Of a stretch of 32,847 nt of DNA, positions 9,261-29,464 are shown one piece after another. A program made the translations under genes and the position numbers. Origin of the DNA: Candidatus Poribacteria bacterium. Lineage in GTDB: Bacteria; Poribacteria; WGA-4E; PCPOR2b. The notes under the pieces are model-generated. The model was not told the DNA's origin. It made no database searches and worked only from the letters and a program-made list of their open reading frames with translations. Position 1 is the stretch's first letter. Every line of letters starts with the position of its first letter. The stretch is from the NCBI GenBank assembly GCA_027296925.1, contig JAPUIP010000675.1:1-32847 (forward strand). The letters are read 5' to 3'.

Positions 9261-9576
9261 TTTTTCCTCCTCTGTTTGTTTTCGTCTGTTTTGAAGTTTA
9301 CCCCGTCGGGTTTGTATATTGTTTGAGTCTGTTTTGTGTTTGGATGCGTCCATTTGAATCTCCTATAATTTGTTAGTCTATGTGTCATTCTCACGGTGCC
9401 GGGGGGAGATGGGGGACTTGTTGGCTAGGTATCTATCGGAAGCCGTTTCGGGAAACTTTAGGACTTTTTTGAATCAGATTGTCTCGTCCCTGGGATTTCG
9501 CAAACACACGCTGATGCAACGCCCTGTCCGGGATTGACTCGGAGGCCCGTCAGTATCCAGGCAGGTCAGGCATCAA

Positions 9577-9593
9577 AGCAATATGTATGCCAA
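9577..9593 (-). promoter_or_regulatory. Sigma54 (-24/-12) promoter candidate for the giant surface protein gene
   Basis: Minus strand TTGGCATACATATTGCT: exact GG-N10-GC spacing, near consensus TGGCAC-N5-TTGCW, intergenic and oriented towards the gene. Confidence 0.7.
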
Positions 9594-9866: not shown

Positions 9867-12800
9867 CTACCGGCGAATACCCATCTTCCAGAAGTGGGTT
9901 TTCGTCACAGTGTTACGCCGTGCGGTTGTGTAGCAGAAGTACACTCCGTTGGCGAGAGGAGTCTGCAAATCGTCCGCGAGATTCCAGCGATAGATGCGAG
10001 CCAATCGATCGGAAATTGCCTGAAATTCGTCATCGTTTATCGTTTTAACAAGCTCGCCTCTGACATTGTAAACCCGCACGGTTAAGATGGCAGGGCTATC
10101 GATTTGACATTCGAGTGTAATTTCGCCAACGGTCGCGGGGTTGGGATAGGTATGCAGGCGCAGGAAGGTCAGTGGTTTGATAGGCGCAGCCAGGAGTTGA
10201 TCAAAACGGAGCGTTTTTACACGCTGTCCCGAATTGCCAGCGAGATCAGTTCCGCGCGCGATGATAACAACTGTATTGCCGATGGGCTTGGGCAAGATGT
10301 GGGTGCCCGTCCATTTCATGACATCGGTCGACTCCAGGCCAACCGGCTGCTGGCTGACAAGTAAAGTTGGATCTGTGCGCAGCTTTTCCGATGCGGTGAT
10401 GGTAATGGTGAGGAAGTCCGGCTGAATCGGATTCGGCAGGGCAAAGACCTGAAAGGTTGGGGGAGTTCGATCCGGCGGCTTCCTGACGATCACTTCAAGT
10501 GAGCCAGTATCGCTATTTCCATTTGGATCGGTTGCCGTCAAGGCAATTAATTCCGAGCCGAGAAAATTTTTCGTCTGGGGTTTGAGGCTCAGCCGGACAA
10601 CCCGCGTGACGAGACCGATTTTGATTAAAATTTTGTCGCTGGCTTTCGCCGTCCAGGCGATCTCTGCATCGGGTGTATCTTCGTCTGTCACAAATTCATC
10701 CAGATGCATCCCCAGTACCTCACCATCCGACAAATAAACCGGCTGGAACGAGACTACCGGGCGTTTCGTCGTAGAAAATGGCGTGCGAACTTCAACGACG
10801 GTTGTGCCTTCTGCCCGGTTTTGCTGCGGGTCCGTGACAGTGAAGGTGATGGTTTCACTGCCGACGAAGTTATCATGCGGGAGAATGTCCACAATATGGG
10901 AAGCCGCATTGATCTCAACCGTCAGATTCAACGTCTCCGATACCGTCCAGGTCAATTGATTCAGCGGCGTGTCCGGATCGGCTACAAATTCATCGAGATC
11001 TAGCTCTCGATCCGGAACGCCATCAATAAAGATCACGTGGGGGAGTTCGGCGATTACCGGCGGTTCGCCGTTCGGATTTGTGGTTTTGACGGTGACACGG
11101 ATGGTTTGACTTCCGCTGAGTCCATCTGCATCTGTCGCTGTAAAGGTGATTTCTTCCGTGCCAACGAAATCGGGGACGGCGGTGAAGGTGACCTGCCGGG
11201 TGTCTGGGGCAATTGACACCTGAATCTGCGCGTTACCGATGAACGCCCACCGAATTTGGTTGATAGGGGTGTCTTCATCGGTGACGTGGTCATCGAGGTC
11301 AATCGAGTTATCGCGTCCCCCTTGCACAAAGCCCACATCCGGAATCCCAGCGACAACGGGTGGTTTTTTGCCCGGCGGTCTCTCGGTCACGGTGACACGA
11401 ATGGTTTGGCTGTCGCTGAGTCCGTCCATATCGGTGGCGGTGAAGGTCGTCTCTTCCGTGCCAACGAAGTCGGTGGCGGTGAACGTGACTCGCCGGGTAT
11501 TGGAATCAATGACTACCTGGATCTGGCTGTTTCCGGCGACTGTCCACTGGATCTGGTCGATGGGCGTATCGGCATCGGTGACGTGGTCATCGAGGTCAAT
11601 TGTGTTATCGCGCTCGCCTTGCACAAAGCTCACAGCCGGGATTCCTGCGACAACCGGAGGGGTTTTGCCCGGCGGTCTTTCGATTACGGTGACGCGGATA
11701 GTTTGGCTATCGCTAAGCCCATCGGTATCGGTCGCGGTAAAAGTGATCTCCTCAGTGCCGAGGAAATCGGCGGTGGCAAACGTGACCCGCCGGGTGGCGG
11801 ACTTAATATTCACATCGATATTGGTATTGCCGGTGGCCTGCCACTGAATCTGATCGATAGGGGTGTCTTCATCGGACACATAGTCATCGAGAAGGATCGA
11901 GCGATCCACCTCGCCTTTCACAAAGTCCACGTTCGGAATGCCAGCGACGACCGGCGGTTTTGGCGGTGGCCTAATCTCTCCGATGACATTGACAGTGTAC
12001 GTCCCGCTTCCAGTATTTCCCTCGGGGTCGGTGGCGGTAAAAGTAAGACGGTGTGTGCCAGCCGACCCGGCTGGCGCGTCAATCGTTACAACGCGCGTCT
12101 CCGGATCTATGACCACACCGAGTGGCGCGACTTCGCCCACACTCCACGTGATTTCTTCGTCTGGCGTATCGCCATCCTCGACATGCTCATCCAGATCTAG
12201 GGCCCCATCCTGGTCCCCTTCATCGAGGGTCAGTTCTCCAGCGAGGGACACCACGGGGCGGAAGACGGCTGTTACGGCTGTATCTGCGCTCGCAGACAGT
12301 CCCGCTTTATTGGTGGCTGTGAACGTCACAGTCTCTATCCCACCCGGCCAATTCGGTTGAGGCGCAAACAGCACGCGGCGATCCGCTTCGATGGTTACCT
12401 GCAAGTGCGTCTCATCAAAGCCGGAAGCTGTCCATTCGATAGCTGAATCCGGCGTTGTCGCGTCCGTTACGAAGTCATCGAGATCGAAGCCTTCGGTGAC
12501 TTCACCGTGACGCACCTGAATCTCCGATGGAAAATCGCGAAGCTCCGGTGGGCTGGGAGCAAGCACGCTGATGTGAACCTGCGTACTCGTACGATTCGAC
12601 TGCGGATCAATTGCCGTGAAGGTGACTTCCTCGGAAACAATCGCCTCGGCAAAGAACGTTGCAATCCGGTCGCTATCGATCGTGATCTGAACCACTTCAT
12701 TACCGCTGAACTCCCATTCAATCTGATCCGGGGTGCTATCGAAATCGAATACATATTCTTTCAGATCTCTTGTTTCTGGTAGTCCAAAATTCAGAACGAT

Positions 12801-14351
12801 CGGCGGAATATCGGCAATCACGGGTGGAGCGCTAGGGTCAATCAAGATTACCTGAATTTTATCTGCGCTCGCCTGGCGGTCCGGGTTCGTCGCCATGAAG
12901 GTAACCGATTCCCTCCCTGTCCAACCGCCCTCGCTACGGAAGGTAACCTGATGCGTTTCTGGATCGATGCCGACCTGTACCTCAACATTGCCTTTCGTCG
13001 TCCAGGTCAGATCCGCCGGCTCGAAGTTAAAATCGAACACGAAGTCATCCAGATCAAACACCGGTGGCCGCATCAGCACGCCGTCGTTCGTGGCGATGAC
13101 ATTGGCAAAAGGGAAAAGGATTGTGAGCGTGGAGAAGTCAATCATCGGCCCATCAAAAGTGGGCGCGATGTCGATCGCCAGTTCAGACACATCGCTGTTA
13201 CCATCGGCATCCGTCGCTCTCAGTTCAACGGTCGTTCGTGCCGGCGTTTGTGCTGCCGCAATGAATAGTATGGTCTGGTCTTCGCGGCGGATGACTTCGA
13301 CGCCGGCGAATGGCGTGCCCCGAGTGATTACCCACTGAATCTCAGAAGCGGGTGAATCCAAGTCCGAAACAAATCCGTTCAGATTGACCTCGCGGGTTTC
13401 ATTAACCCGCAAAAATATCGGACCCTCGGATCGGATAATCGGTGGCGAAACCACTTGAACTTCGAGTCTCCGACTTGTTGCGTTGCCCTCCGGATCGCGA
13501 GCGGTAAATGTAATGGTCTCTTTGCCGATCCAGTCCTCCACAGCACGAAAGGCGACGATATGGGTCGTCGGGTTGATGTTCACAATGACATTTGCATTTC
13601 CCGAGGCCTCCCAACTGAGTTGTTCCGGTGTATTGTTTGTATCTTGAACATGGAGATCCAGATCCAGCGACTCATGAACTTTTCCCACCGGAAATCGAAT
13701 AATCCTGGGAAAAGTATCGAGAATAACCGGGCCGCCAACGACTGAAATCGTCGCCGGAGTCATGTTGACGAACGGCCGGGGTGGGAGCGACCCAATTTTT
13801 ACTTCAGTGACGCGAGATTGAGACTTGTCATTGTCAAATGTGATCTGTGTGAAACCGGTCGTTTTAATCGCGCGAAAACGCATCAGCCCAACCACGCCAG
13901 GTGCCTTCAGCCCCGGCTCGACACCTTGAATGAGCCCTTGCGCGAAATCAATCTGGAATTTTCGGAAGAAGCGATTGCCGGGGTCTCCGTGTGTATCACT
14001 TTCAAAGATGTTCCACCCATCCGGCACCGCATCCCCCCTACCAACCGGCTGAACGCCACGGAGACTAAAATTTGCGTCAACCAGTTCGAGGAATTGCGAT
14101 TGTTGGTTTTGAAATGGAACGTTTTCGGTTGTGTCCACACCATCGAATGACAGGTAGATCGACACTGCGGTGACATTCTGGCCTTGCGGATCGACGAAGA
14201 TTTCCACCTCAAATTCATCGTTCAGGCTGACCGAAAATTTACTGGCTTTCGTTGCCGCGCTTCGCAGCACAACCGTAGCTGCGTCAGCTTGATTCAGCCA
14301 GATGATAACGAAAAGACATGCAAACGCAATGTACCGGGGCACTCTCGACAT
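9867..14351 (-). CDS. Large secreted protein: N-terminal cohesin-like domain, 11 cadherin/tandem-95-like Ig repeats, one further Ig-like domain and a FlgD-Ig/T9SS-like C-terminal domain
   Basis: Signal peptide (MSRVPRYIAFACLFVIIWLNQADA); cohesin-like NDEFEVEIFVD...AVSIYLSFD; 11 units of about 100 aa with P-x-I...DLDDxVxDxD...W...E-x-ITFTATDxxG; C-terminal YPNP...RVYNVRGELVK...W...LANGVYF. Confidence 0.88.
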   Translation of the reverse strand: MSRVPRYIAFACLFVIIWLNQADAATVVLRSAATKASKFSVSLNDEFEVEIFVDPQGQNVTAVSIYLSFDGVDTTENVPFQNQQSQFLELVDANFSLRGVQPVGRGDAVPDGWNIFESDTHGDPGNRFFRKFQIDFAQGLIQGVEPGLKAPGVVGLMRFRAIKTTGFTQITFDNDKSQSRVTEVKIGSLPPRPFVNMTPATISVVGGPVILDTFPRIIRFPVGKVHESLDLDLHVQDTNNTPEQLSWEASGNANVIVNINPTTHIVAFRAVEDWIGKETITFTARDPEGNATSRRLEVQVVSPPIIRSEGPIFLRVNETREVNLNGFVSDLDSPASEIQWVITRGTPFAGVEVIRREDQTILFIAAAQTPARTTVELRATDADGNSDVSELAIDIAPTFDGPMIDFSTLTILFPFANVIATNDGVLMRPPVFDLDDFVFDFNFEPADLTWTTKGNVEVQVGIDPETHQVTFRSEGGWTGRESVTFMATNPDRQASADKIQVILIDPSAPPVIADIPPIVLNFGLPETRDLKEYVFDFDSTPDQIEWEFSGNEVVQITIDSDRIATFFAEAIVSEEVTFTAIDPQSNRTSTQVHISVLAPSPPELRDFPSEIQVRHGEVTEGFDLDDFVTDATTPDSAIEWTASGFDETHLQVTIEADRRVLFAPQPNWPGGIETVTFTATNKAGLSASADTAVTAVFRPVVSLAGELTLDEGDQDGALDLDEHVEDGDTPDEEITWSVGEVAPLGVVIDPETRVVTIDAPAGSAGTHRLTFTATDPEGNTGSGTYTVNVIGEIRPPPKPPVVAGIPNVDFVKGEVDRSILLDDYVSDEDTPIDQIQWQATGNTNIDVNIKSATRRVTFATADFLGTEEITFTATDTDGLSDSQTIRVTVIERPPGKTPPVVAGIPAVSFVQGERDNTIDLDDHVTDADTPIDQIQWTVAGNSQIQVVIDSNTRRVTFTATDFVGTEETTFTATDMDGLSDSQTIRVTVTERPPGKKPPVVAGIPDVGFVQGGRDNSIDLDDHVTDEDTPINQIRWAFIGNAQIQVSIAPDTRQVTFTAVPDFVGTEEITFTATDADGLSGSQTIRVTVKTTNPNGEPPVIAELPHVIFIDGVPDRELDLDEFVADPDTPLNQLTWTVSETLNLTVEINAASHIVDILPHDNFVGSETITFTVTDPQQNRAEGTTVVEVRTPFSTTKRPVVSFQPVYLSDGEVLGMHLDEFVTDEDTPDAEIAWTAKASDKILIKIGLVTRVVRLSLKPQTKNFLGSELIALTATDPNGNSDTGSLEVIVRKPPDRTPPTFQVFALPNPIQPDFLTITITASEKLRTDPTLLVSQQPVGLESTDVMKWTGTHILPKPIGNTVVIIARGTDLAGNSGQRVKTLRFDQLLAAPIKPLTFLRLHTYPNPATVGEITLECQIDSPAILTVRVYNVRGELVKTINDDEFQAISDRLARIYRWNLADDLQTPLANGVYFCYTTARRNTVTKTHFWKMGIRR
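11064..11957 (-). repeat. Three highly similar ~297-bp intragenic tandem repeats (cadherin-like units 7-9)
   Basis: PPVVAGIP...DTPIxQIxW...GTEExTFTATDxDGLSxSQTIRVTV occurs three times, with unit starts near 11957, 11660 and 11363. Confidence 0.85.
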
Positions 14352-19243: not shown

Positions 19244-21205
19244 TCACTTATCAACGACATATTTCAACATAATCCCGAGATCTCCAACAATCAAGCCGTT
19301 CCCGGCGTCTGTCATATAAATCGAATTCAGATTGTAGTGGGTTCCGCTCCTTTGCGGACGCCAGTTCTCTCCACCATCGACAGTGCGAAGCACCGTGCCT
19401 CCGCTACCCACAACCCACCCTTCGTTCGAGTTGAGGAAGAACACGTCATTCAGGGAACTGTCTACATAACTTTTTTGAAGTATCCATGTTTTCCCTCCAT
19501 CAGTGGTCTGGGCGATAAGACCTGCAATCCCAACGAGCCAGCCGTTGTCGCGGTCTGTAAAGTATACATCTAACAGCCATATCTCGCCCAGATGCGCTTG
19601 CGTTTCCCACGTATTTCCACCATCCTTTGTATGCAGGACGATTCCGCCGTCGCCGGCGATCCAGCCGGTTTGGGCATCGATAAAGTGGAGCCCGAAAAGG
19701 TCCCTATTCACGCCGCTCTGTTGGCGTTTCCACGTTTTGCCACCATCGGTGGTGTGCAGAATCTCCCCGCTGTTGCCGATGACCCACCCCCGCTGTTCAT
19801 CGATAAAGAAGATACCGAGTAGGTCCTTCTTCGTATCTGATCTTTGCTGTGACCATGTTCTGCCGCCGTTAATGGTATGAACAATTGTTCCCCATTCCGC
19901 AACCGCCCAGCCGACCCTGTCGTTGATGAAATATGTTGAACCGAAACACTCCATCGTTCCGCTGTCCTGCGACTGCCAGTGTCGTCCGCCATCGCTCGTA
20001 TTGAGAATCGCCCCGCGATCGCCAACCGCATATCCAACCTGATCGTTAATAAAATGGAGGTCCGAAAGTAAATAGCTCGGCGTCGATTGGAGCGCCCATC
20101 TCCGCCCGCCGTCTGTTGTATGCCAGATTGCCCCAAACTCACCGACCGCCCAGCCCTGCCGATCATCGACAAAGTGAACCCCGAGTAGGACGGGATCACC
20201 GCCAGGGAGTCGCGTCGGCCCCCCACGTTGATGCTGCCACGTCTTCCCACCATCTCGGGTGTGCAAGATGGCGCCCATGTCGCCAACGATCCAGCCGGTT
20301 CTGACATCGGTGAAATGGAGATCGGACAGGAGGAAGGTGTGCAACGGTTCATCTCCGGTCTTGACCTGTTGCCCATAGATCCGTTCGTGTCGCCTGTTTG
20401 AGCCCTGAGTCACATATTTCCAGGTTTTTCCGCCGTTGCTTGTCGTAAGGATGGTGCGTCTATTGCCCACGATCCATCCATGTTTCTCATCCACAAGATA
20501 GACATCGGACAACTCGTAGCGGATGTTCGTCTTCTGACGTTCCCAAGTCTCCCCGCTGTCGCTCGTGTGATAAGCGTTGCCCTCATAGCTGACCGCCCAA
20601 CCTTTCTGGGAATTGAGGAAATAGACGCCTCGCAGTGAATTCTTGCCGAGCCCTTCGGCGCGATTGACCCACGTTTTCCCACCATCGTGCGTGTGCAACG
20701 CGGTGCCGTAATCGCCAACCACCCATCCCTCTTGCGCGGATACAAAGTGGAGATCGAACAGGTCATCGGGCGTATCAGTGATTTGTCGTTCCCATGTCTC
20801 CCCGCCGTTTTCCGTGTGCAAAATCACGCCATTGTCGCCGGCAATCCAGCCCATCTGCCGGTCAACAAACTGAACGCCCCGCAGCGGGTAATGCGTGCCA
20901 CTCTTTTGGGGATGCCATGTTGCGCCGCCATCGGTTGTGTGGGCAATCACGCTGTCGAACTCCTCTCCTAATGAACTTCCCTCATTATTTCCGACCGCCC
21001 AGCCTGTTTTCTCATCGATGAAGAATACATCATAAAACCGCGTTTCCCAGTCCGCACGCCGAACAACTTCCCAATGGCCGAACTTCGGCTTCTGCTCTGT
21101 TGTGCATCCAACCACTACACCAATGAGCAGAAACATGAGGTGGATTGCGCACTGCAGATTGCGGAAAAAACTCGTCGATTCGTTGATCTGCTGCTTCATT
21201 TTCAC
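19244..21205 (-). CDS. YCF48-related BNR/Asp-box repeat lipoprotein (14 blades, probably two 7-bladed beta-propellers)
   Basis: Lipobox-like LLIGVVVGC; 13 full GWxVGxxGxILxTxDGGxTW repeats plus a terminal partial one. Exact start is uncertain. Confidence 0.88.
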   Translation of the reverse strand: MKMKQQINESTSFFRNLQCAIHLMFLLIGVVVGCTTEQKPKFGHWEVVRRADWETRFYDVFFIDEKTGWAVGNNEGSSLGEEFDSVIAHTTDGGATWHPQKSGTHYPLRGVQFVDRQMGWIAGDNGVILHTENGGETWERQITDTPDDLFDLHFVSAQEGWVVGDYGTALHTHDGGKTWVNRAEGLGKNSLRGVYFLNSQKGWAVSYEGNAYHTSDSGETWERQKTNIRYELSDVYLVDEKHGWIVGNRRTILTTSNGGKTWKYVTQGSNRRHERIYGQQVKTGDEPLHTFLLSDLHFTDVRTGWIVGDMGAILHTRDGGKTWQHQRGGPTRLPGGDPVLLGVHFVDDRQGWAVGEFGAIWHTTDGGRRWALQSTPSYLLSDLHFINDQVGYAVGDRGAILNTSDGGRHWQSQDSGTMECFGSTYFINDRVGWAVAEWGTIVHTINGGRTWSQQRSDTKKDLLGIFFIDEQRGWVIGNSGEILHTTDGGKTWKRQQSGVNRDLFGLHFIDAQTGWIAGDGGIVLHTKDGGNTWETQAHLGEIWLLDVYFTDRDNGWLVGIAGLIAQTTDGGKTWILQKSYVDSSLNDVFFLNSNEGWVVGSGGTVLRTVDGGENWRPQRSGTHYNLNSIYMTDAGNGLIVGDLGIMLKYVVDK

Positions 21206-21456: not shown

Positions 21457-22461
21457 ATGATGAGATTTTCAGACAGATACCTATCTACATATTTGCAGGA
21501 AAGAAGGCAGAGGCGCAGACAAAAGCTTAAACGCCAAAGGCAGATGGCGGTTGGTATCTCCACCGACACTGTACTTTTGAAATCCGTTCGGCTAAATGCC
21601 GAACAGCAAGGCGCGATTTCTGCGGTTCAGGCGAGATCTCACCCGGAACAGGGATTCCAGATCGTTACGCCAAAACGCCTTTCACTGTTGATTTCCCTTG
21701 GACTCCATTTGATCATGGGGTTAATTGCAACGCTATATATCGTTCAACTCACAAGCGTTGATGATGATGCGGTGATTGTCAATCTCCTCGATTCGAAAAA
21801 GCTTCGAGATCCGAAACGCCGGATTTCATCCCGAAAGGTCAAGCGGGTTAAGCGACCGCAATCCTCGCAGGTGCAACCGCCGCGATTGCAAAAACCGATC
21901 ACAACCGCCGTTAAAATTCCAACTGGAGATGCCAGGTATACGCTTCCCGCAAGTGACACCTCTGTTCCTATTCTTTCTACTCTTTCTGAGGATGGGGCGG
22001 GGATTGACGCAGCAAGGCTTGAAAGAAGGTTGCTTACAGGCGGACGTCGCGCCGAGATTCCTTCTGCCATTCCTAAGATCCAGCCATACCGATCTACATC
22101 AATCATTGACAAAATTGAGTCGGCGCCTTTGCCTCAGGAAGATTTCAAGCCAGAGCCGATTGAGCCTTTAACTGTGGAACTGAGCGATGTGACGCAGCCG
22201 CCTCGTTTCCTCCATAAGGTTGCACCCAAATACCCCGATCTCGCCCGTCGTGCCCAGAAAGAGGGCGTTGTATGGCTCGAAGCCTCAATTGGTGTTGATG
22301 GTCTCGTCAAAGATACGAAAGTGATTCAGGGAGTCGGATTCGGCTGTGATGAGGCCGCAATTCGAGCGTTGAAGGCTTCACGTTTTTCCCCAGCCAAGCA
22401 GGGAGAGCAGGCGGTGATTGTGCGGATACAGATTCCGTATCGTTTCAAATTGGAGGATTAG
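21457..22461 (+). CDS. tonB: Energy transducer TonB family protein
   Basis: TM anchor with SLGLH, Pro/Lys/Arg-rich linker, TonB_C domain PKYPDLARRAQKEGVV...GFGCDEAAIRA...FSPAKQ...IPYRFKL. Confidence 0.88.
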   Translation: MMRFSDRYLSTYLQERRQRRRQKLKRQRQMAVGISTDTVLLKSVRLNAEQQGAISAVQARSHPEQGFQIVTPKRLSLLISLGLHLIMGLIATLYIVQLTSVDDDAVIVNLLDSKKLRDPKRRISSRKVKRVKRPQSSQVQPPRLQKPITTAVKIPTGDARYTLPASDTSVPILSTLSEDGAGIDAARLERRLLTGGRRAEIPSAIPKIQPYRSTSIIDKIESAPLPQEDFKPEPIEPLTVELSDVTQPPRFLHKVAPKYPDLARRAQKEGVVWLEASIGVDGLVKDTKVIQGVGFGCDEAAIRALKASRFSPAKQGEQAVIVRIQIPYRFKLED

Positions 22462-22495
22462 GGGCAGACTTGCATTTGCCGATAAGGAGGAAGGG

Positions 22496-23950
22496 ATGCC
22501 AAACGCAATACAAGATCAACCCCAACGGGTAATTCAAAATCGATTATCTGCGATCCAGCGTCGCATGCAAATCAATTGCTTTTTCCAGAATTTGGCGCGT
22601 TACAGTTTCTGGGGGCTCTGCATCGGTGCGATAGTCCTCATCGCTAACCGATTTTTTCCCTTCCCGATGCCGATCGGTTTTGCATTTTCCCTGCCGCTTG
22701 TGATTGCAATTGCTATAGCGGCGAGCTTGAGCTTGTTTCGAAAAACTGACCTCCTTGCCATCGCACGTCTCGTGGACCAGCGCTTGCATCTGAAGGAACG
22801 CTTGAGCACCGCTCTTGAAGCAATTTACCGAGAATTATCGAGCGATTTCGCCATTTTGCAGATTCGCGATGCCGCAAAAGTCGCCGAAAAAATCACCCCG
22901 TCCACTGCCATCTCTTACACTCGGCCATCGATGCTAAAATGGCTTCCCATCCCCGTTTTGCTGGTTGGGCTTTCGTTTTTTGCCCCGCGTATGTATGAGG
23001 TTCCCCCGCCGCCAACAGCGGCTGAACGCGCAGCCATTAATGATGCCGCAGCAAGGCTTGAAGGAGACCTCCGCAATATCGACGATGCTAAACTTACTGA
23101 GCAGATTCAGGATACCGTTAAAGCGCTACGAGACAAACGTATTGATGTGCAAGCGGCACAGAGTCGGCTTCGTGATCTACGCGACGAAATTCGTGCGAAA
23201 GAAAGCCAGATCGCCGGTGACGACGTGGATCGAGCCGTCGAAGCCATTTCTAAAATGGGTGAAACCTCCAAATTTCTCATTGGCACGGATGCCGGGGAGA
23301 TCGCCTCGGAGCTCGAGAAAATCGCTGATCAGATGGATGGACTCACCGCAGCACAGCAGGCAGAATTGGATGCTTTGCTCCGTAAGCTTGCCGAACAGCT
23401 TGCCGGCAATCCGGCGGCTAAGAGCCTTACAAACCAACTGAAGGGAATCGAGACGCAAGCACTGAGTCCTGAAATGCTGAAGAAAATCGTGGATTCACTC
23501 CGAACCGTCAATCAGCAAAAGAAAGAGATTGCCCAGTTGGAACAGATTTTGGAGGAAATTCAAGCGAGTCGAAAGAACATCGGCTTAGCTGGGCTCGAAA
23601 TGCCCCGTAAGACGGGAGGGGTGGCAAGTCGTGACGGCGGGCCAGGTGAAGAATCTGAGACGGGAGAAGCACAAGGAACGCAGGTTGGAGATGAAACTTC
23701 TGAGAATTTTGACACGCAAACCGAAGATCTGCGGTTGACGGGCGTGGCATCTGATTCGTCAGAGTTTTCCTCAGTCGCTACACAAGATAACCCAAGTGGT
23801 GAAAACGAACCCACTTATCTGCAATATCGAGAAGTTTACCTCAGCGCAAAACAGGCTTATACGGAAGCCATCGAAAGGGATCAGATTCCCGTGCGGTATC
23901 AGCAGCAGGTGAAGGCGTATTTGGAGGCAATCGCCAACCCTACACCATGA
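22496..23950 (+). CDS. Hypothetical membrane-anchored coiled-coil protein (DUF4175-like)
   Basis: ATG 22496 after AAGGAGG; three N-terminal TM segments, ERLSTALE, long coiled coil, acidic linker, C-terminal IPVRYQQQVKAYL. Confidence 0.75.
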   Translation: MPNAIQDQPQRVIQNRLSAIQRRMQINCFFQNLARYSFWGLCIGAIVLIANRFFPFPMPIGFAFSLPLVIAIAIAASLSLFRKTDLLAIARLVDQRLHLKERLSTALEAIYRELSSDFAILQIRDAAKVAEKITPSTAISYTRPSMLKWLPIPVLLVGLSFFAPRMYEVPPPPTAAERAAINDAAARLEGDLRNIDDAKLTEQIQDTVKALRDKRIDVQAAQSRLRDLRDEIRAKESQIAGDDVDRAVEAISKMGETSKFLIGTDAGEIASELEKIADQMDGLTAAQQAELDALLRKLAEQLAGNPAAKSLTNQLKGIETQALSPEMLKKIVDSLRTVNQQKKEIAQLEQILEEIQASRKNIGLAGLEMPRKTGGVASRDGGPGEESETGEAQGTQVGDETSENFDTQTEDLRLTGVASDSSEFSSVATQDNPSGENEPTYLQYREVYLSAKQAYTEAIERDQIPVRYQQQVKAYLEAIANPTP

Positions 23951-23991: not shown

Positions 23992-24032
23992 CAAAAAGCC
24001 GGGAACGCAAAAGGTGCGTTCCCGGCTTTTTG
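23992..24032. terminator. Strong bidirectional intrinsic terminator
   Basis: Perfect 18-bp inverted repeat caaaaagccgggaacgca-aaagg-tgcgttcccggctttttg between convergent operons. Confidence 0.9.
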
Positions 24033-24069: not shown

Positions 24070-24243
24070 TCATGCTCGGAGCTTTCGATAAAGATAGATG
24101 ACTGCAAACCCAATCGCACCGAGCAAGAGAAGTGTCATGGCAAGCTGAAATGCCCAGGCGAAAACTGGAACGACAATCTTCAGCGCGAGCAACACCAGCC
24201 CGAGTATCAGTGCTAAGATGACCAGACTTCGAAGTAGTCTCAA
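24070..24243 (-). CDS. Small two-TM membrane protein (57 aa) missing from the ORF track; PspG-like topology
   Basis: TTG start 9 nt after AGGAG; MRLLRSLVILALILGLVLLALKIVVPVFAWAFQLAMTLLLLGAIGFAVIYLYRKLRA*; sits between pspA and the terminator. Confidence 0.8.
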   Translation of the reverse strand: MRLLRSLVILALILGLVLLALKIVVPVFAWAFQLAMTLLLLGAIGFAVIYLYRKLRA

Positions 24244-24286
24244 TTAGGTTGACTCCTATGAATTCAGTATTCACAAATTCTCAGCC

Positions 24287-24946
24287 CTAATCTTTTAATC
24301 GGGCTTTGAGCTTGGCGAGTTCTTCCTCGAGTTCGTCGTTGCGATTCAGTTCGTCGAACTCCTGATCCAAACCGAGTTGACGCATTTCGCTCAGCGCTGC
24401 GGCATTCGCCTCGGCATCAAGGACACGGTCTTCAATACGATTAAAAGCACTTACTGCGCTAGAATCAGAAATTCCTGACACTGTTTGATGAATTGCTCGT
24501 TCCGCCTCTGCCCTCTTTTGACGAGCAATGAGCAAGGCACGCTTGTTTCTGGCTTCTTCGATCTTTGCCTCTAAAGTTGACAGCCCATCTTTGAGTACAG
24601 AGACACTCTCTTTCTGAGCCTCGAACTGTTCGCGGAATCTTTCCGCCAGATCAGCAAAGGACCGCTTCCGGCGAAGAGCTTCCTTTGCGCGCACATCGTC
24701 GCCATTCTGGATAAACACGATGGCACGCTTTTCCCACTTCTCAGCACTTTCCAAGTTTTCCCGGGACTGCGCTTCAAATTTATTCTGGTCTCGAATCGCC
24801 GCAGCAACCTGAATTTTTGCCTCCTTGAGTTCGTGCTGCATGTCCTCCAAGAGTTGATTCAGGATTCTCTCCGGATCCTCAACCCGATCGAGCAAGTCGT
24901 TGATATTCGATTTGAGGATTCGTCTGATTTTCTCAAAGATCGGCAT
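24287..24946 (-). CDS. pspA: PspA/IM30 family protein (bacterial ESCRT-III-like)
   Basis: MPIFEKIRRILKSNINDLLDRVEDPE amphipathic N-terminus, WEKRA...GDDVRAKEAL, AFNRIEDRV, C-terminal LEEELAKLK. Confidence 0.93.
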   Translation of the reverse strand: MPIFEKIRRILKSNINDLLDRVEDPERILNQLLEDMQHELKEAKIQVAAAIRDQNKFEAQSRENLESAEKWEKRAIVFIQNGDDVRAKEALRRKRSFADLAERFREQFEAQKESVSVLKDGLSTLEAKIEEARNKRALLIARQKRAEAERAIHQTVSGISDSSAVSAFNRIEDRVLDAEANAAALSEMRQLGLDQEFDELNRNDELEEELAKLKARLKD

Positions 24947-24977
24947 TGGTGATCACTCCCTTATAATTTCCAGCGGT

Positions 24978-25538
24978 TTATACAGTATACCTTCCGAGGG
25001 TCTCCTCATCGAGATCCTCTAACCCGCCTTTAGAGGGCTGTTTTTCTGCATTCTTTAGCTCGGTTTCAGGAAACCCAGTTTCTTGAATTATCTGCTCTGC
25101 GACATAAATCGGTGCCTCAAATCTCAATGCAAGGGCAATTGCGTCGCTGGAGCGGGCATCAATCTCTAGCGTTTTGCCATTCGCTTGTAAATTGATTTGT
25201 CCAAGATAGGTTGAATCGGTCAGGGAATGCACAAAGACTGTCTCAACTGTGGCACCAAGATTTTCGATGATATTTTTCATCAGATCATGCGTCATTGGAC
25301 GCGGTGGCGGCGGTTCGCCCTTGAGTTTCCACTGAATCGCGGTAGCCTCTCCAGGTCCAATCCATATTGGTACAATATATTTCGGATCACCAGCTTTCTC
25401 TTTCAAAAAGAGAATCGGTGTGCCAGTACTGGCATCAACAGAGATAAACGCCACGTCAACCTCGATCATGTTCTGTTCTCTGGTCTGATGGCGGTCATCG
25501 GCTTCAGCGGCCTTTTTGATCTTCTTTGGATCTTTCAT
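24978..25538 (-). CDS. Bifunctional nuclease family protein (DUF151/DNase-RNase)
   Basis: PILFLKE...VPIWIGPGEATAI...PRPMTHDLM...IDARSSDAIALALR; start set at ATG 25538 after AAGGAG. Confidence 0.92.
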   Translation of the reverse strand: MKDPKKIKKAAEADDRHQTREQNMIEVDVAFISVDASTGTPILFLKEKAGDPKYIVPIWIGPGEATAIQWKLKGEPPPPRPMTHDLMKNIIENLGATVETVFVHSLTDSTYLGQINLQANGKTLEIDARSSDAIALALRFEAPIYVAEQIIQETGFPETELKNAEKQPSKGGLEDLDEETLGRYTV

Positions 25539-25607
25539 CTGAGGACTCCTTATTGACTCACTTGGGATTTGAGTGTCAATTGGGTTCGCCGATGACACGA
25601 TGAATGC

Positions 25608-25624
25608 TACAAGAATGTTGCCAA
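25608..25624 (-). promoter_or_regulatory. Sigma54-like promoter (TTGTA -12 variant) for nuclease-pspA-small TM gene
   Basis: TTGGCAACATTCTTGTA, 70 bp upstream of ATG 25538; the same pattern recurs at 26241 and 28411. Confidence 0.6.
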
Positions 25625-25721
25625 TCATCTTGCTATCGACAAACCCAAATTGCTTCGGAAGTTTCCGTTAATAAATAACAAGCACCGACGTGCCACGGCT
25701 CCTGGACTTTACTAGGCCCAT

Positions 25722-26194
25722 CTATGATGCCTCGGTGCCAGTGGTTTCCGGGGACTTCGTTTCGGCAGTCAGATCTAAGCCATGAACGAGGTCACTCACA
25801 GTCTTGACGAGTTTCTGCGGCTCGACATCCGCAAAATTCAGAATCTCTTTCAACACTGGTACGGCTGCACCGGCACCCAGGATCGAGCGAAGGATCTTGC
25901 CGACTCCGCCGCCTGACGCGCCATTCCCCCCACCATTTCCACCGAGGTCAAGGACCCGTATACTTTCGATGCGTTCCGCAGGCTTCATCAATTGACCTGT
26001 GACTTCGGGGAGTGCCTGAATGAGTGACAATATCGCTTCATTGGTCAGGACTTTCTGATCGGCTGAGTTCTTCGCTTCGATCAGCGCCTCTTCACCCTCG
26101 GCCTTCGCTAGGCTTTATAAGTCACAATCAGGATGACCACCATCGCAGCAATTGCGCCGATGATCATTCCGAAAAGGTTTGTACTGGCACCCAT
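25722..26194 (-). pseudogene. Flotillin/YqiK-like SPFH gene with a large internal deletion and frameshift
   Basis: SD AAGGAGA and ATG 26194 encode only a TM anchor (MGASTNLFGMIIGAIAAMVVILIVTYKA*, stop 26108-26110). Another frame then gives a flotillin-like C-terminus LAKAEGEEALIEAKN...LIQALPEVTGQLMKPAERIESIRVLD. Directly downstream of a yqiJ-like gene. Confidence 0.78.
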
Positions 26195-26240
26195 TTCACA
26201 TCTCCTTCGTAAAAAGGATACGCGGATTAATAACCAATGG

Positions 26241-26257
26241 TACAATAGACTTGCCAA
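26241..26257 (-). promoter_or_regulatory. Sigma54-like promoter (TTGTA -12 variant) upstream of the flotillin gene
   Basis: TTGGCAAGTCTATTGTA, 47 bp upstream of ATG 26194. Confidence 0.6.
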
Positions 26258-26329
26258 CACAGGGTTTAATGGATTGGCATCCCTCCTTATTTCGGCCAGT
26301 TCTGGACAAAACGTGACTGACAGTCAGCC

Positions 26330-27031
26330 TCATGCATCGAAGGAACTATCCGCTTTTGTCACATCAAAGATTCGTGTCGTCGGATCGTAATCGATAAGGA
26401 TCACCGTGTCCCCTTTTAAGGGAATCTCCTCGCCCTCACGGATACGGCAACTGACGGTCAACTCGGGTCCATCGGGAACCTGGACACGCGCTGTCCCAAA
26501 GGTTGTTGTGACCCTGCCGCTAATTACCCGACCCGTTAGCCCGATCAGATCATAATTGGTGGTGGCACGTTCACTTTCGGGAAATAGCTTTGAAATTCCC
26601 AGGGCAAGGTAACGTGTTCCAAAAATACTACATAGAAACGCGGCAGCGAAAGGGATCCAGAGTACGGCTCGCGGGGAGTTAGGATCGATATTCAAAAAGT
26701 CATTAACAATCAAGCCCGAAATTCCCCAGATTGAAAAGAGAGCCATCAGGATAATCGTAAATGGAACTTTGCCAACGTTCAAAATTCCTAACACGCTGGA
26801 AACAAAGCCACCTCCCCCGGAACTGCTCTCCGCATCAACCTCAGCATCCGCGTCCACATCAACGTCAGCATCAACGTCCATATCGACATCAGTGTCCACA
26901 TCGACATCCCCACTCCCAAAATCTAAGCCGCCCATAACGAGTTGAAGAATGGCAAAGAGAAAAACGAAGGCAATCGGCGCTGTAAACCAAACATTGTACC
27001 AGGCAAAGATGTAATCAAAAAAACCGCCCAT
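26330..27031 (-). CDS. YqiJ/NfeD-like membrane protein with C-terminal OB fold (DUF1449-like)
   Basis: N-terminal TM, DVDVD acidic linker, LNVGKVPFTIIL TM pair, DLIGLTGRV...KGDTVILIDYD OB fold; SD GGAGGG; upstream of the flotillin remnant. Confidence 0.85.
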   Translation of the reverse strand: MGGFFDYIFAWYNVWFTAPIAFVFLFAILQLVMGGLDFGSGDVDVDTDVDMDVDADVDVDADAEVDAESSSGGGGFVSSVLGILNVGKVPFTIILMALFSIWGISGLIVNDFLNIDPNSPRAVLWIPFAAAFLCSIFGTRYLALGISKLFPESERATTNYDLIGLTGRVISGRVTTTFGTARVQVPDGPELTVSCRIREGEEIPLKGDTVILIDYDPTTRIFDVTKADSSFDA

Positions 27032-27048
27032 ATCGACTTCCCTCCAGC

Positions 27049-27264
27049 CTAGTCAAGCCGTTGCACTTTGTACAGATGGGTTTGGGGTTCATAATCCCAA
27101 AGGACCACCCTTTCCCCCTGCTTTACACTTCCGCCCTCCACGTCAACACTGCAATATATCGTCCTGCGGAAAGGGCGGCCTTCAATCTGTGCGATGCCAA
27201 AATCGGTGTTGACTTCACGACTTGTGATCTTTGCAACGGCGCCGACGAGATCTGAACGGCGCAA
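27049..27264 (-). pseudogene. C-terminal OB-fold fragment of a second NfeD/YqiJ-like gene
   Basis: SDLVGAVAKITS..VNTDFGIAQI...KQGERVVLWDYEP aligns by eye with the C-terminus of 26330..27031; no SD or TM region; overlaps the PH gene out of frame. Confidence 0.68.
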
Positions 27265-27634
27265 TTTGCGAAAAAATCAACTCAAGCGCGCGTTGAGCTT
27301 CGCGGCGGTTGATATTGTTGATTAGATACTTATCGCCATTGACTTGAATCTCAAGGTAAGCTTGCCCAAATACACGGTGTTTGAAACTTCGGTCAAGTTT
27401 GGCGGACTTGATCTGAGAAAATGGGAGATTACACCGAATGTTGATGTAGGAAGCACTGAGGCTACCCATCTGGCGCTCATCCAACACCAACACCCGGTCG
27501 GAAGTGATAATGATGAAGTCGGGACTCAGGAGTTCGGATCTCCCAAGCATGCACAATTGAACTTGCTCATTCGCAGTCAGTTGGGCTTGAACTGTTTCTT
27601 GAACTCAAGATGGCAGGCGATGAAACTCAGCCAC
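27215..27634 (-). pseudogene. Bacterial PH-domain protein gene with an in-frame TGA at codon 10 and an aberrant 3' end
   Basis: GTG 27634, 6 nt after the upstream pspA-paralogue stop, reads VAEFHRLPS*VQETVQAQLTANEQVQLCMLGR...IIITSDRVLVLD (bPH-like). TGA at 27605-27607; the tail APFRSRRRRCKDHKS is out-of-frame NfeD sequence. Confidence 0.62.
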
Positions 27635-27640
27635 CTTACA

Positions 27641-28339
27641 TCACCCCGTTGAAGTTGAGCTTTCTGAATCCTCAGCCGCGACTTTTGCTTTCAACGCCGC
27701 AAGATCTGCCTCAACCGTCTCTTTACGCTCAAGCTCGTGAAATTTCTGCTCAAGGTCATCGCCTTGCGTCAACTCAGCTAACGCCTCCGCATGAGCTTCC
27801 AGATCACGGACACGCTCTATCATCCGGTCGTAGGCATCGAATGTACTTGTATCAATCACCACATCCGCCGGTGGCGATGAGCTCACAGCCGGCCGAGACG
27901 ATTCCACACTTTCAGTCACAACGAATTTTGCGGTGCGATAGCGCATCGAATCTAGCTGAGTTTCCAACGTCTTCAAACTTGACTTGAGCGAATCGATTGT
28001 TTCCTGCTGTGTTGCAGTCTGCTCTCGATATTGGTCAGCTCTCTTGATATGCTCACATTTGCGGGCGAGCGCCCGGCGAGCGAGCTCTTCTTCCCCTTTT
28101 TTCAGGGCGAAAACCGCTTTTTCTTCCCACCTTTGCGCTTCCCTGCCATGTTCGTCAATCTCGCGCTCTAGCAGCTTGAGGTCGGTGATTGCACCCGCGA
28201 TGAGAGATTTGACATTACGGATGTTCTGGCGCATCTCTTCGAGCATCAGGCCGCGCGTTTTGCGCGTATCTTCCGCCTTTGTGAGAAGGTCGCTCACATG
28301 CGATCTGATAATGAGCTTGGCTCGGTTTAGTGTTTGCAT
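27641..28339 (-). CDS. Second, divergent PspA/IM30 family protein
   Basis: ATG 28339 after AAGGAGAG; WEEKAVFALKKGEEELARRAL, TFDAYDRMIERV, VEADLAALK. The longer ORF-track start runs into tmRNA and is rejected. Confidence 0.9.
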   Translation of the reverse strand: MQTLNRAKLIIRSHVSDLLTKAEDTRKTRGLMLEEMRQNIRNVKSLIAGAITDLKLLEREIDEHGREAQRWEEKAVFALKKGEEELARRALARKCEHIKRADQYREQTATQQETIDSLKSSLKTLETQLDSMRYRTAKFVVTESVESSRPAVSSSPPADVVIDTSTFDAYDRMIERVRDLEAHAEALAELTQGDDLEQKFHELERKETVEADLAALKAKVAAEDSESSTSTG

Positions 28340-28410
28340 TGTTCTGTCTCTCCTTGTAACTTTGATCTGAATCAAATGGGTAATAGGCCCAAACGAACAT
28401 GTGAAAAAGT

Positions 28411-28426
28411 TACAAGGATTTTGCCA
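28411..28426 (-). promoter_or_regulatory. Sigma54-like promoter (TTGTA -12 variant) upstream of the second pspA
   Basis: TGGCAAAATCCTTGTA, 72 bp upstream of ATG 28339. Confidence 0.6.
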
Positions 28427-28501
28427 TTTGGGAAGGTTGAGCCAGAGGGAGCGTATGTAATGTGCAGCGGCCGGGGGGAGAAATACAAATTGTAAAAATA
28501 A

Positions 28502-28855
28502 TGGAGGTGGCGGGAATTGAACCCGCGTCCAAGAGCATTTCAACAAAGGCTACTACATGCTTGTCACAAGTTTTAAGTTTCGCCCACAAGACTCCCTTAT
28601 GCCAGATTCGCTGTGGACTATCTCAAGTGAAGTCTCGCGGCCTGTCCCTTGAGAACAAACAGACCACATAGCCCGTTTTTTGTCGCCCGACTAATCCGAC
28701 GGGCCGCAAATTAGTCAGACGAGCTGCTCTTAAGCAGCTAGTGCTAATTCTTCGTAATCAGCAATTATGATTTTTCCGCCTGTTTAACGAGGCCTGCGGA
28801 GACCTCGGCATGCAACCTTTATCTCATCTACTCCTGTCGAAACCTTTTCACCCCC
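28502..28855 (-). ncRNA. ssrA: tmRNA; tag peptide (A)ADYEELALAA
   Basis: 5' GGGGGTG pairs with 3' CACCTCC-A with a G3-U wobble; T-arm GCGGGTTCAATTCCCGC; tag ORF 28762-28730 after ATAATT; adjacent to smpB; CCA not encoded. Confidence 0.96.
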
Positions 28856-28961: not shown

Positions 28962-29426
28962 CTACCTCAGATATGATCGAATCGCGCGTTGATCTGCCGC
29001 TTTCCTGAGATCGTCGCGCTTATCATACGCCTGTTTGCCGCGTGCGACGGCGATTTCGACTTTTACTTTGCCGTCGCTGAAGTAGGCTTTCGTTGGGACA
29101 ATTGTCATGCCATCAGAGCGGGTTGTCGCTTCGATTTTCCGAATTTCCCTACGATTCAGCAGCAACTTCCGTTTTCGCTTTGGCTCATGGTTCTCGCGAT
29201 TCCCGTGCTCGTACGGACCAATATGCGCATCGATCAAAAAAACTTCGCCATTCTCGACACGCGCGTAGCTATCTGTCAGATTGAGTCTGCCAGTGCGGAT
29301 CGCCTTGACTTCTGTCCCTTGAAGAACAAGCCCAGCTTCGTAACGATCCAGCAGGTGATAATCATATCGCGCTTTCTTATTGATGGCAGCCGTTTTGGTC
29401 TGTGCAGCAGGCTTGGCACCTTTCAT
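28962..29426 (-). CDS. smpB: SsrA-binding protein SmpB
   Basis: NKKARYDY...EAGLVLQGTEVKAIR...RKRKLLL...GKQAYDKR. Confidence 0.97.
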   Translation of the reverse strand: MKGAKPAAQTKTAAINKKARYDYHLLDRYEAGLVLQGTEVKAIRTGRLNLTDSYARVENGEVFLIDAHIGPYEHGNRENHEPKRKRKLLLNRREIRKIEATTRSDGMTIVPTKAYFSDGKVKVEIAVARGKQAYDKRDDLRKAADQRAIRSYLR

Positions 29427-29435
29427 AGCGGATGA

Positions 29436-29464
29436 ATTATAGCACAAACGCGAAAGTGACGCAA
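29436..29464 (-). promoter_or_regulatory. Sigma70 promoter of smpB (leaderless or near-leaderless transcript)
   Basis: TTGCGT-17 bp-TATAAT with extended TG; only 9 nt between the -10 box and the ATG, and no SD. Confidence 0.7.

Follow-up and report, generated by a model that had tools for sequence, protein, structure and literature searches.

PspA and Vipp1 are bacterial relatives of ESCRT-III, and it is their recruitment and regulation outside a few model species that matter for the locus described here, a cluster of PspA-, NfeD- and flotillin-type genes and gene remnants at positions 24070 to 28426 of a 32,847-nucleotide contig (JAPUIP010000675.1; assembly GCA_027296925.1) of a Candidatus Poribacteria bacterium. 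The whole 32,847-nucleotide stretch is referred to as the window. Among the systems described so far, PspA operons that also encode band-7/flotillin and YqiJ/YuaF membrane proteins come closest, and shortened operons of flotillin and YqiJ that lack PspA are described in the same survey (Ravi et al., 2024, PMC11237479). A PspA network with Band 7/FloT and NfeD proteins has been outlined for the Acidobacteriota, and in Haloferax volcanii a gene downstream of pspA encodes a membrane protein with a bPH_4 domain (Popp et al., 2022, PMC9239133). In the pspA-ydjGHI system of Bacillus subtilis, an SPFH-domain protein is encoded together with PspA and, to go by that study's title, is needed for PspA's link to the membrane (Scholz et al., 2021, PMC8581546). 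Finally, pspA of the Escherichia coli pspF-pspABCDE system is transcribed from a sigma-54 promoter that needs the enhancer-binding activator PspF, a mode of control that, according to Popp et al. (PMC9239133), had been described only in Enterobacteriaceae.

We consider it likely that the locus in the window is a local copy, in part eroded, of a cluster that is retained downstream of smpB-ssrA in Candidatus Poribacteria, and that this cluster falls into the published class of membrane-maintenance loci composed of PspA, flotillin and NfeD/YqiJ. The complete form of the cluster is pspA2-bPH-nfeD2-yqiJ-flotillin-BFN-pspA1-mini, in which mini designates the gene for a 57-residue protein with two transmembrane (TM) segments. 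All eight genes are intact at the related locus L155, where they encode proteins of 242 (PspA2), 126 (bPH), 235 (NfeD2), 244 (YqiJ), 653 (flotillin), 163 (BFN), 220 (PspA1) and 57 (mini) amino acids. In the window, the eight genes or remnants follow each other in the order that the preliminary description had given, all of them on the minus strand between the tmRNA gene and a strong terminator, as borne out by open reading frame (ORF) calls, Pfam matches and tblastn comparisons with intact relatives. The source is a metagenome-assembled genome (MAG) of 6.39 Mb in 907 contigs that is 91% complete, and the public runs containing the stretch carry the labels marine, sediment and hydrothermal-vent metagenome. 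The features are:

28962..29447, minus strand: smpB, the context gene just upstream of the tmRNA gene (PF01668, E=7e-57)
28499..28855, minus strand: tmRNA gene ssrA (Rfam RF00023, 198 bits; ARAGORN), tag ADYEELALAA
28411..28426, minus strand: sigma-54-type -24/-12-like element TGGCAAAATCCTTGTA, 71 nt before the ATG of pspA2
28351..28418, minus strand: perfect inverted repeat of 13 nt, the 5' arm of which overlaps the -12-like element while the 3' arm lies over the Shine-Dalgarno (SD) sequence of pspA2
27641..28339, minus strand: pspA2, intact, a divergent PspA/IM30 paralogue of 232 amino acids (PF04012, E=1e-33)
27215..27634, minus strand: bPH gene, damaged (bPH_3, E=4.8e-5; tblastn homology from 27637 to 27269)
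27049..27267, minus strand: nfeD2 remnant, the C-terminal ~72 codons for the soluble domain (tblastn to NfeD2 of L039)
26330..27031, minus strand: yqiJ-like gene, intact, an NfeD-family membrane protein of 233 amino acids (PF21001, E=1.9e-12)
26241..26256, minus strand: looser -24/-12-like match TGGCAAGTCTATTGTA, 46 nt before the flotillin ATG
26108..26194, minus strand: N-terminal stub of the flotillin pseudogene, a membrane anchor of 28 codons followed by TAG (ORF and sequence)
25722..26108, minus strand: C-terminal remnant of the flotillin pseudogene (tblastn; PF15975, E=7e-12)
25608..25623, minus strand: sigma-54-type -24/-12-like element TGGCAACATTCTTGTA, 69 nt before the ATG of BFN
24978..25538, minus strand: BFN/DUF151 gene, intact, 186 amino acids (PF02577, E=6e-37)
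24287..24946, minus strand: pspA1, intact, PspA/IM30 protein of 219 amino acids (PF04012, E=1.2e-47)
24070..24243, minus strand: mini, the 57-residue two-TM protein (ORF; without known family)
23992..24032, no strand assigned: intrinsic terminator hairpin between convergent genes (dG -43.4 kcal/mol, z -6.0, none of 200 shuffles as good)

Both PspA proteins exceed the PF04012 cut-off of 33.9 bits (162.8 bits for PspA1 and 117.3 bits for PspA2) and span profile positions 2/3 to 217 of 220. They are 32% identical to each other, and genes in the pspA1 and pspA2 positions split with an SH-aLRT value of 99 in a quick tree that was used for this split only and in which the wrong-strand extracts L026, L029 and L036 ('_par' rows) were disregarded; the unlinked PspA paralogues of the genome fall with pspA1. 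PspA1 shares 67-84% identity with its family orthologs and 59-84% over all relatives' loci encoding it, and PspA2 is 71-76% identical to most orthologs of the same family and 59% identical to that of L051. The YqiJ-like protein (PF21001, 47.8 bits) has the layout of its family, in which an N-terminal multi-TM part (YqiJ_N) precedes a soluble C-terminal domain, and aligns over residues 1-230 with orthologs of 226-244 amino acids. The loop that follows its first TM helix contains an acidic D-V-D-x tract, which differs in length among orthologs and stems from a 12-nt periodic repeat within the gene (26829-26908, minus strand). The BFN protein exceeds the family cut-off (PF02577, 126.4 bits against 27) with the motifs RP-x-THDL and D-x-RPSD kept and matches TM0160 (PDB 1sj5/1vjl) over residues 21-155 (E=2e-18); its start codon, giving 186 amino acids, was chosen from alignment A5. 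The bPH protein lies just above the bPH_3 cut-off (24.2 against 23 bits), and in the model of an ortholog (pLDDT 91) seven strands lie between an N-terminal helix and a long C-terminal one; every Foldseek match listed for it, including the bacterial structures 3dcx and 3hsa, bears a PH domain by title. We considered and rejected an assignment to the PspAA domain of Ravi et al., which consists of three helices plus a sheet of four strands, as the model is a seven-stranded PH fold. The mini protein has two hydrophobic helices and a conserved C-terminus, LYRKLRA, and a purpose-built HMM recovered it in 25 ORFs across the poribacterial families f1, f3, f4, f7 and f8. It has no Pfam, NCBIfam or Atlas family, with a sub-threshold Loki-CTERM match (E=0.004) as the only hit and a best Atlas score of 0.84 that lies below the level for follow-up. 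An anti-phage reading of the locus was dropped when PADLOC returned no defence-family match for nine proteins from the locus and its orthologs.

The conservation of the cluster was assessed in 41 loci, namely the window, 18 loci anchored on PspA1, 20 loci anchored on BFN from eight poribacterial families, and two more, which were classified by BLAST and purpose-built HMMs and spot-checked with Pfam. The genes are linked in the relatives, so that the unlinked state which the preliminary description had named as refuting it is not what they show, and besides the intact eight-gene locus L155 a seven-gene form without nfeD2 occurs nine times (L037, L040, L043, L044, L046-L050). BFN stands directly upstream of pspA1 in all 18 PspA1-anchored loci, and mini is present in 17 of them, the exception being L051. 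Among the BFN-anchored loci, bPH is found in 14, NfeD/YqiJ in 12, flotillin in seven, mini in seven, and a PspA gene next to BFN in three. The following arrangements were encountered outside the forms just described:

f2 (seven of nine loci): bPH-yqiJ-flotillin-BFN, without PspA and without mini
genus g6: bPH-nfeD2-BFN-mini
f4: nfeD2-BFN-mini (L068, L069) and BFN-bPH (L070)
f3, genus g11 (L067): pspA2-BFN-pspA1-mini
f7: pspA2-bPH-BFN-pspA1-mini
f8: pspA2'-bPH-pspA-BFN-pspA1-mini
L066, L071 and L072: BFN alone

The cluster or parts of it are present in every poribacterial family sampled, and it is retained while the outer flanking genes vary between families. The smpB gene and/or the tmRNA gene remain upstream in f1, f2 and f3 (SmpB in L057, L060 and L067), and 12 of 18 related loci have the tmRNA gene upstream of pspA2. 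The tmRNA tag itself reads ADYEELALAA in the window and in L039, ADEELALAA in most family members, and ADEDFELALAA in L051.

The 19 loci of the window's own family that hold both PspA genes show where the cluster erodes. Flotillin is intact in ten of them, absent from eight, and present as remnants in one, the window. The flotillin-less loci have kept different leftovers: a C-terminal stub of YqiJ in L038, L042, L045, L053 and L054, and also in L039, where nfeD2 is kept; an N-terminal YqiJ stub in L156; and nothing at all in L051. An nfeD2 stub is a further kind of leftover within the family. Because these leftovers differ, the flotillin/NfeD middle has likely been lost several times independently, while pspA2, BFN, pspA1 and the 57-residue gene persist. 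In the window's family it is thus the middle that goes, repeatedly, and the PspA ends that stay. The phylum offers a natural series of one cluster with and without flotillin, NfeD, bPH and PspA, from which the dispensable parts can be read.

In the genome studied here, flotillin and nfeD2 are pseudogenes, and the state of bPH is doubtful. Flotillin orthologs of 602-797 amino acids carry both Band_7 and Flot domains; in the window, no single frame holds the anchor, the SPFH/Band_7 domain, the coiled coil and the Flot domain. The anchor start (26194-26111), compared by eye with ortholog N-termini, ends in TAG, and the sequence from 26108 to 25725, in a frame differing from that of the stub, corresponds to residues 477-604 of a 609-residue ortholog (tblastn). 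What remains is the anchor stub and the last 128 residues; about 445 internal codons covering the SPFH domain and the coiled coil are deleted, and there is no Band_7 match at the locus. A 220-nt contig of run X19, from a different study, bridges the junction without mismatch over 25997-26216, and in run X3 the contig of a strain with about 95% identity departs from the window at 26109 and, read by eye in the frame of the gene, goes on with coiled-coil sequence of flotillin. This makes the flotillin deletion a real and recent one. Of nfeD2, only residues 144-215 of the 222-residue NfeD in L039 are left, and the multi-TM N-terminal two thirds are gone; the gene is intact (222-239 amino acids, NfeD/YqiJ family) in L039, L055, L056, L155 and L156. 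Its homology begins at 27267, where that of bPH ends (27269), in a different frame, and the bPH frame, having lost its 3' end and stop codon, reads on into nfeD2 sequence. Since the two homologies abut in this manner, a single deletion has removed the stop codon of bPH together with the spacer and two thirds of the nfeD2 gene; none of the listed contigs bridges this junction. In addition, the frame of bPH is interrupted by a TGA at 27605-27607, a position that Arg occupies in relatives (tblastn, alignment A2). All three DNA runs covering the site (X1, X2 and X3) read a plus-strand G at 27607, i.e., the codon CGA, and the TGA is a minority variant or a MAG assembly error. Recoding of TGA was rejected on the grounds of these three runs and of pspA2, which itself ends in TGA. 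The preliminary description had counted flotillin and NfeD as parts of the system: they are linked to it in the relatives, but this genome has the two pseudogenes and no other flotillin-domain gene, the window remnant (PF15975) being the sole match to that domain; the genome has four other Band_7 proteins. Flotillin and one NfeD of this genome should consequently not be annotated as functional.

How does this cluster compare with the systems described before? PspA, band-7/flotillin and YqiJ/YuaF proteins occur together, as in the class of Ravi et al., in the intact relatives (L037, L040, L043, L044, L046-L050 and L155), while the window has flotillin only as remnants; likewise, the PspA-less f2 loci resemble the abbreviated flotillin-YqiJ operons from the same source. 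In contrast to that class, as far as PMC11237479 portrays it, no CesT/Tir-like (YjfI) chaperone and no giant AAA+ ATPase are encoded between the tmRNA gene and the terminator, where every ORF is accounted for. The poribacterial cluster instead has a PspA gene at both ends, a soluble PH protein, a BFN/DUF151 protein, the 57-residue two-TM protein and sometimes a second NfeD. The linkage of PspA with flotillin-type and NfeD proteins is shared with the acidobacterial network, whose operons, in the account of PMC9239133, include HTH regulators; the poribacterial cluster has no regulator gene and carries a sigma-54-type element instead. B. subtilis has a single PspA and the partners YdjG and YdjH (PMC8581546), and in contrast to this system the SPFH protein of the window is a pseudogene. 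The main text of PMC11237479 and one of its supplements mention neither nucleases nor DUF151, bPH or Poribacteria, and the text and supplements of PMC9239133 mention neither BFN/DUF151 nor nucleases or Poribacteria; the web app of the former and the external data of the latter may hold such neighbourhoods. Our literature search found no paper joining a bifunctional nuclease or DUF151 with PspA, and among the matches listed, papers on PspA, flotillin or phage shock did not name Poribacteria. Operons of PspA, flotillin and YqiJ/NfeD are already known (PMC11237479, PMC9239133), and the cluster is a local variant of them and not a new system; of the lineage-specific system proposed in the preliminary description, bPH, BFN, mini and the two flanking PspA paralogues are what is specific to the phylum. 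New are the reference locus L155 with its eight intact genes, the finding that the flotillin/NfeD middle has been lost repeatedly, and a pair of cluster-specific sigma-54-type elements.

This pair has the form TGGCAA-N5-CTTGTA with GG-N10-GT spacing, and its near-identical copies stand upstream of pspA2 and BFN. A GG-N10-G[C/T] spacing is that of sigma-54 promoters. The broader motif TGGCA-N6-TTGYW occurs five times in the window, against 0.27 expected and with none of 100 shuffles reaching five, and three of the five copies lie on the minus strand inside the cluster. The specific form TGGCAANNTNCTTGTA has only two matches in the 6.39-Mb genome, those upstream of pspA2 and BFN; four other genomes of the family have three genome-wide matches each, two of which are in the cluster. 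Across the family, the element precedes pspA2 in 15 of 19 loci and BFN in 20 of 21, the spacer between the tmRNA gene and pspA2, aligned in ten genomes, contains the invariant block GGCAA-AT-CTTGTA, and the copy before pspA2 of L155 has one mismatch. In f7, the version in front of pspA2 is the canonical TTGCA one, and L073 and L051 carry TTGCA. No copy of the element was found in L067, in L074 or in the families that lack PspA; a relaxed scan of the PspA-less families gave matches only inside the mini ORF (L068, L069), which were discarded. The looser match at 26241-26256 was not counted as a promoter because it has no counterpart upstream of flotillin in relatives. The genome possesses rpoN and 38 Sigma54_activat matches.

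As the cluster-specific pair precedes both, pspA2 and BFN-pspA1-mini look like genes under one control, and the paired elements offer a concrete and testable handle on regulation that would tie the DUF151 gene to pspA1. Transcription would proceed in three units, pspA2-bPH-nfeD2'-yqiJ, flotillin' and BFN-pspA1-mini, since the intergenic gaps (6 nt for pspA2-bPH, 17 nt for nfeD2'-yqiJ, 31 nt for BFN-pspA1 and 43 nt for pspA1-mini) and weak terminator-like hairpins after yqiJ (26329-26315) and after the flotillin remnant (25694-25681) fit this layout.

BFN is an ordinary and widespread gene. Of 101 poribacterial genomes, 99 have it, mostly in one copy. Nuclease activity has been reported for the plant BBD proteins (PMC7249048). 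A metagenome scan with a BFN alignment left 80 loci. The arrangement flotillin-BFN-PspA is seen only in L075 (57% identity); at the remaining 79 loci (35-47% identity; many contigs short) our HMMs detected no PspA, bPH, NfeD, flotillin or mini neighbour, and the link of BFN to PspA and flotillin is on this account peculiar to Poribacteria. Elsewhere, the TM0160/BFN family is mostly found beside genes for MiaB-like radical-SAM proteins or AdoHcy hydrolase: of 17 upstream neighbours scanned outside Poribacteria (L078-L132), 11 are MiaB-like (UPF0004 and Radical_SAM, mostly with TRAM) and four are AdoHcy hydrolases; only in Poribacteria was BFN seen between flotillin and pspA. Such neighbours, MiaB/RimO-like methylthiotransferases above all, give a hint that the family's context is RNA modification or the methyl cycle. 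BFN genes are duplicated in tandem in L051 and in several f2 genomes (including L057; G028/G042/G048 and others). A second, divergent BFN paralogue with 27% identity is encoded in L072 (positions 7003-7569, minus strand; family f5); it starts with a twin-arginine-like signal (RRDFL...) that would place its DUF151 domain outside the cytoplasm.

These data lend themselves to a working model for the cluster. Upon membrane stress, a putative enhancer-binding protein would switch on both sigma-54 units, and the two ESCRT-III-like PspA paralogues would then coat and seal the inner membrane. YqiJ/NfeD, the 57-residue membrane protein and the soluble PH protein would act as anchors or adaptors, and the flotillin/NfeD scaffold, where present, would mark the site. 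In the genome studied here, the system would run, if at all, on pspA2, yqiJ, BFN, pspA1 and mini, with bPH added in those cells that have the CGA codon. The identities of the genes, their lesions, their conservation and the promoter-like motif that they share have been shown, whereas sigma-54 dependence, induction by stress and all physical contacts are elements of the model that we infer. The PspA heteropolymer, the PH-domain adaptor and the nuclease arm of the preliminary description are likewise hypothetical. It is a tentative notion, more doubtful than the cluster assignment itself, that the BFN/DUF151, soluble PH and 57-residue membrane proteins are true components of a sigma-54-controlled PspA regulon in Poribacteria. 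If they were, DUF151 would have a role in the handling of membrane stress, e.g., by coupling membrane damage to RNA/DNA processing or by chaperoning PspA1, and sigma-54/activator control of PspA would extend far beyond the enterobacteria.

Several observations weigh against such a concerted system. The two sigma-54-like elements of the window and the rpoN gene of the genome recall the E. coli psp system, but in contrast to it no PspC was found in this 91%-complete genome and no PspF equivalog exceeds the cut-off (best TIGR02974 match 301.7 bits, 443.55 required). The preliminary description had pspB, pspC, pspF and lia missing from the window, which holds for PspC and, above the cut-off, for PspF, the two that were searched for, PspB and lia not having been included. 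The -12 part of the element is GT in the window's family and not the canonical GC, and the repeat in the pspA2 leader would not be transcribed from the promoter that it overlaps. The only contigs from an RNA library (run X19) cover 25997-26216 at the flotillin junction and 26658-26932 in yqiJ at a depth of 2-3, along with diverged tmRNA pieces; they may be DNA carry-over and are too thin for claims on expression or operon structure. Moreover, the modules can work apart, as f2, the largest family, keeps bPH-yqiJ-flotillin-BFN without PspA, mini or the motif, and a conserved order within the phylum need not mean a shared function, as smpB-ssrA is syntenic as well.

The last two points are also the strength of the view that there is no integrated system at all and that independent housekeeping and stress genes (ssrA, the PspA paralogues, an NfeD-flotillin pair and BFN) are neighbours by descent. 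Nearly every combination of modules exists (f2 without PspA, g6 and f4 without PspA or flotillin, f3 without bPH or NfeD), the synteny extends to smpB-ssrA, and the middle genes were repeatedly lost without loss of the rest. Mere descent accounts poorly for a rare promoter-like element of which both genomic copies lie in the cluster, for the short gaps or overlaps at pspA2/bPH, at bPH/yqiJ in f2 and at BFN/pspA1, and for a PspA-flotillin-NfeD linkage that recurs in unrelated phyla, as described in PMC11237479 and PMC9239133, and we deem this view unlikely. Less improbable, while still doubtful, is that BFN forms a working part of the system, the 'nuclease arm' that is made with PspA1 and acts on nucleic acid or as a PspA partner under membrane stress. 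BFN is the first gene of the BFN-pspA1-mini unit, separated from pspA1 by 31 nt in the window and 27-29 nt in L037 and L067, it lies directly behind a cluster-specific -24/-12-like element, and it adjoins flotillin or PspA genes in most poribacterial families despite their differing outer flanks. Yet this is the ordinary and usually single copy of the phylum, with the family-wide motifs kept; 79 of the 80 metagenome loci outside close relatives lack a PspA, bPH, NfeD or flotillin neighbour, the usual upstream neighbour elsewhere is a MiaB-like methylthiotransferase (11 of the 17 scanned), and BFN stands alone in L066, L071 and L072. A predicted complex of PspA1 (alignment A3) and BFN (alignment A1) scored 0.01 against a mark of 0.32, which speaks neither for nor against binding.

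The conserved TGGCAA-N5-CTTGTA might also not be a sigma-54 promoter, and the inverted repeat suggests what else it could be: an RNA leader that hides the ribosome-binding site of pspA2, or an operator for another regulator. The 13-nt perfect repeat joins the motif to the SD sequence of pspA2, its region folds better than all of 200 shuffles (z -2.66), and a 10-bp core pairs in ten of ten sequences, with eight cells departing from the commonest pair, all by one-sided changes to a G-U wobble. The repeat at 28351-28418 may consequently be an SD-sequestering leader hairpin that serves translational control, and the GT dinucleotide at -12 suits this interpretation too. Against it stand the BFN copy of the motif, which has no matching hairpin (z -0.26), the conservation of TGGCA and of the GG-N10-G spacing beyond what an anti-SD sequence needs, the canonical TTGCA in L073 and L051, the presence of rpoN and many activators, and the want of any compensatory double change in the pairing. 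We find a leader or an operator rather unlikely, and the paired elements are more likely sigma-54 promoters. That the broken genes are artefacts of a MAG fragmented into 907 contigs, and that the true organism has an intact cluster, would agree with the bPH TGA contradicted by all three covering DNA runs, with the unbridged bPH/nfeD2 junction and with the apparently intact flotillin of the closely related X3 strain. This explanation is very improbable given that a contig from a different study crosses the flotillin junction without mismatch and that comparable losses occur in closed long-read genomes of relatives. A cluster genuinely eroded in the window remains our preferred reading.

The surroundings of the cluster in the window offer a few further observations. 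A 510-residue protein, whose N-terminal segments are hydrophobic and whose long C-terminal part is charged and resembles a coiled coil, is encoded at 22418-23950 on the plus strand and shares the terminator convergently with the cluster; it matches no Pfam or PADLOC family. An ORF of 2951 codons (498-9353, minus strand) has no Pfam match at E<=1e-6, and a canonical sigma-54-like sequence, TGGCATACATATTGCT, lies 224 nt upstream of it (9577-9592, minus strand); a 1494-residue Big_9/PKD/HYR surface-type protein (9867-14351) adjoins this ORF. At 19244-21205 on the minus strand, a 653-residue BNR-repeat protein strongly matches the family of YCF48, an assembly factor of photosystem II (PF14870, E=4e-83), although we take the lineage to be non-photosynthetic.

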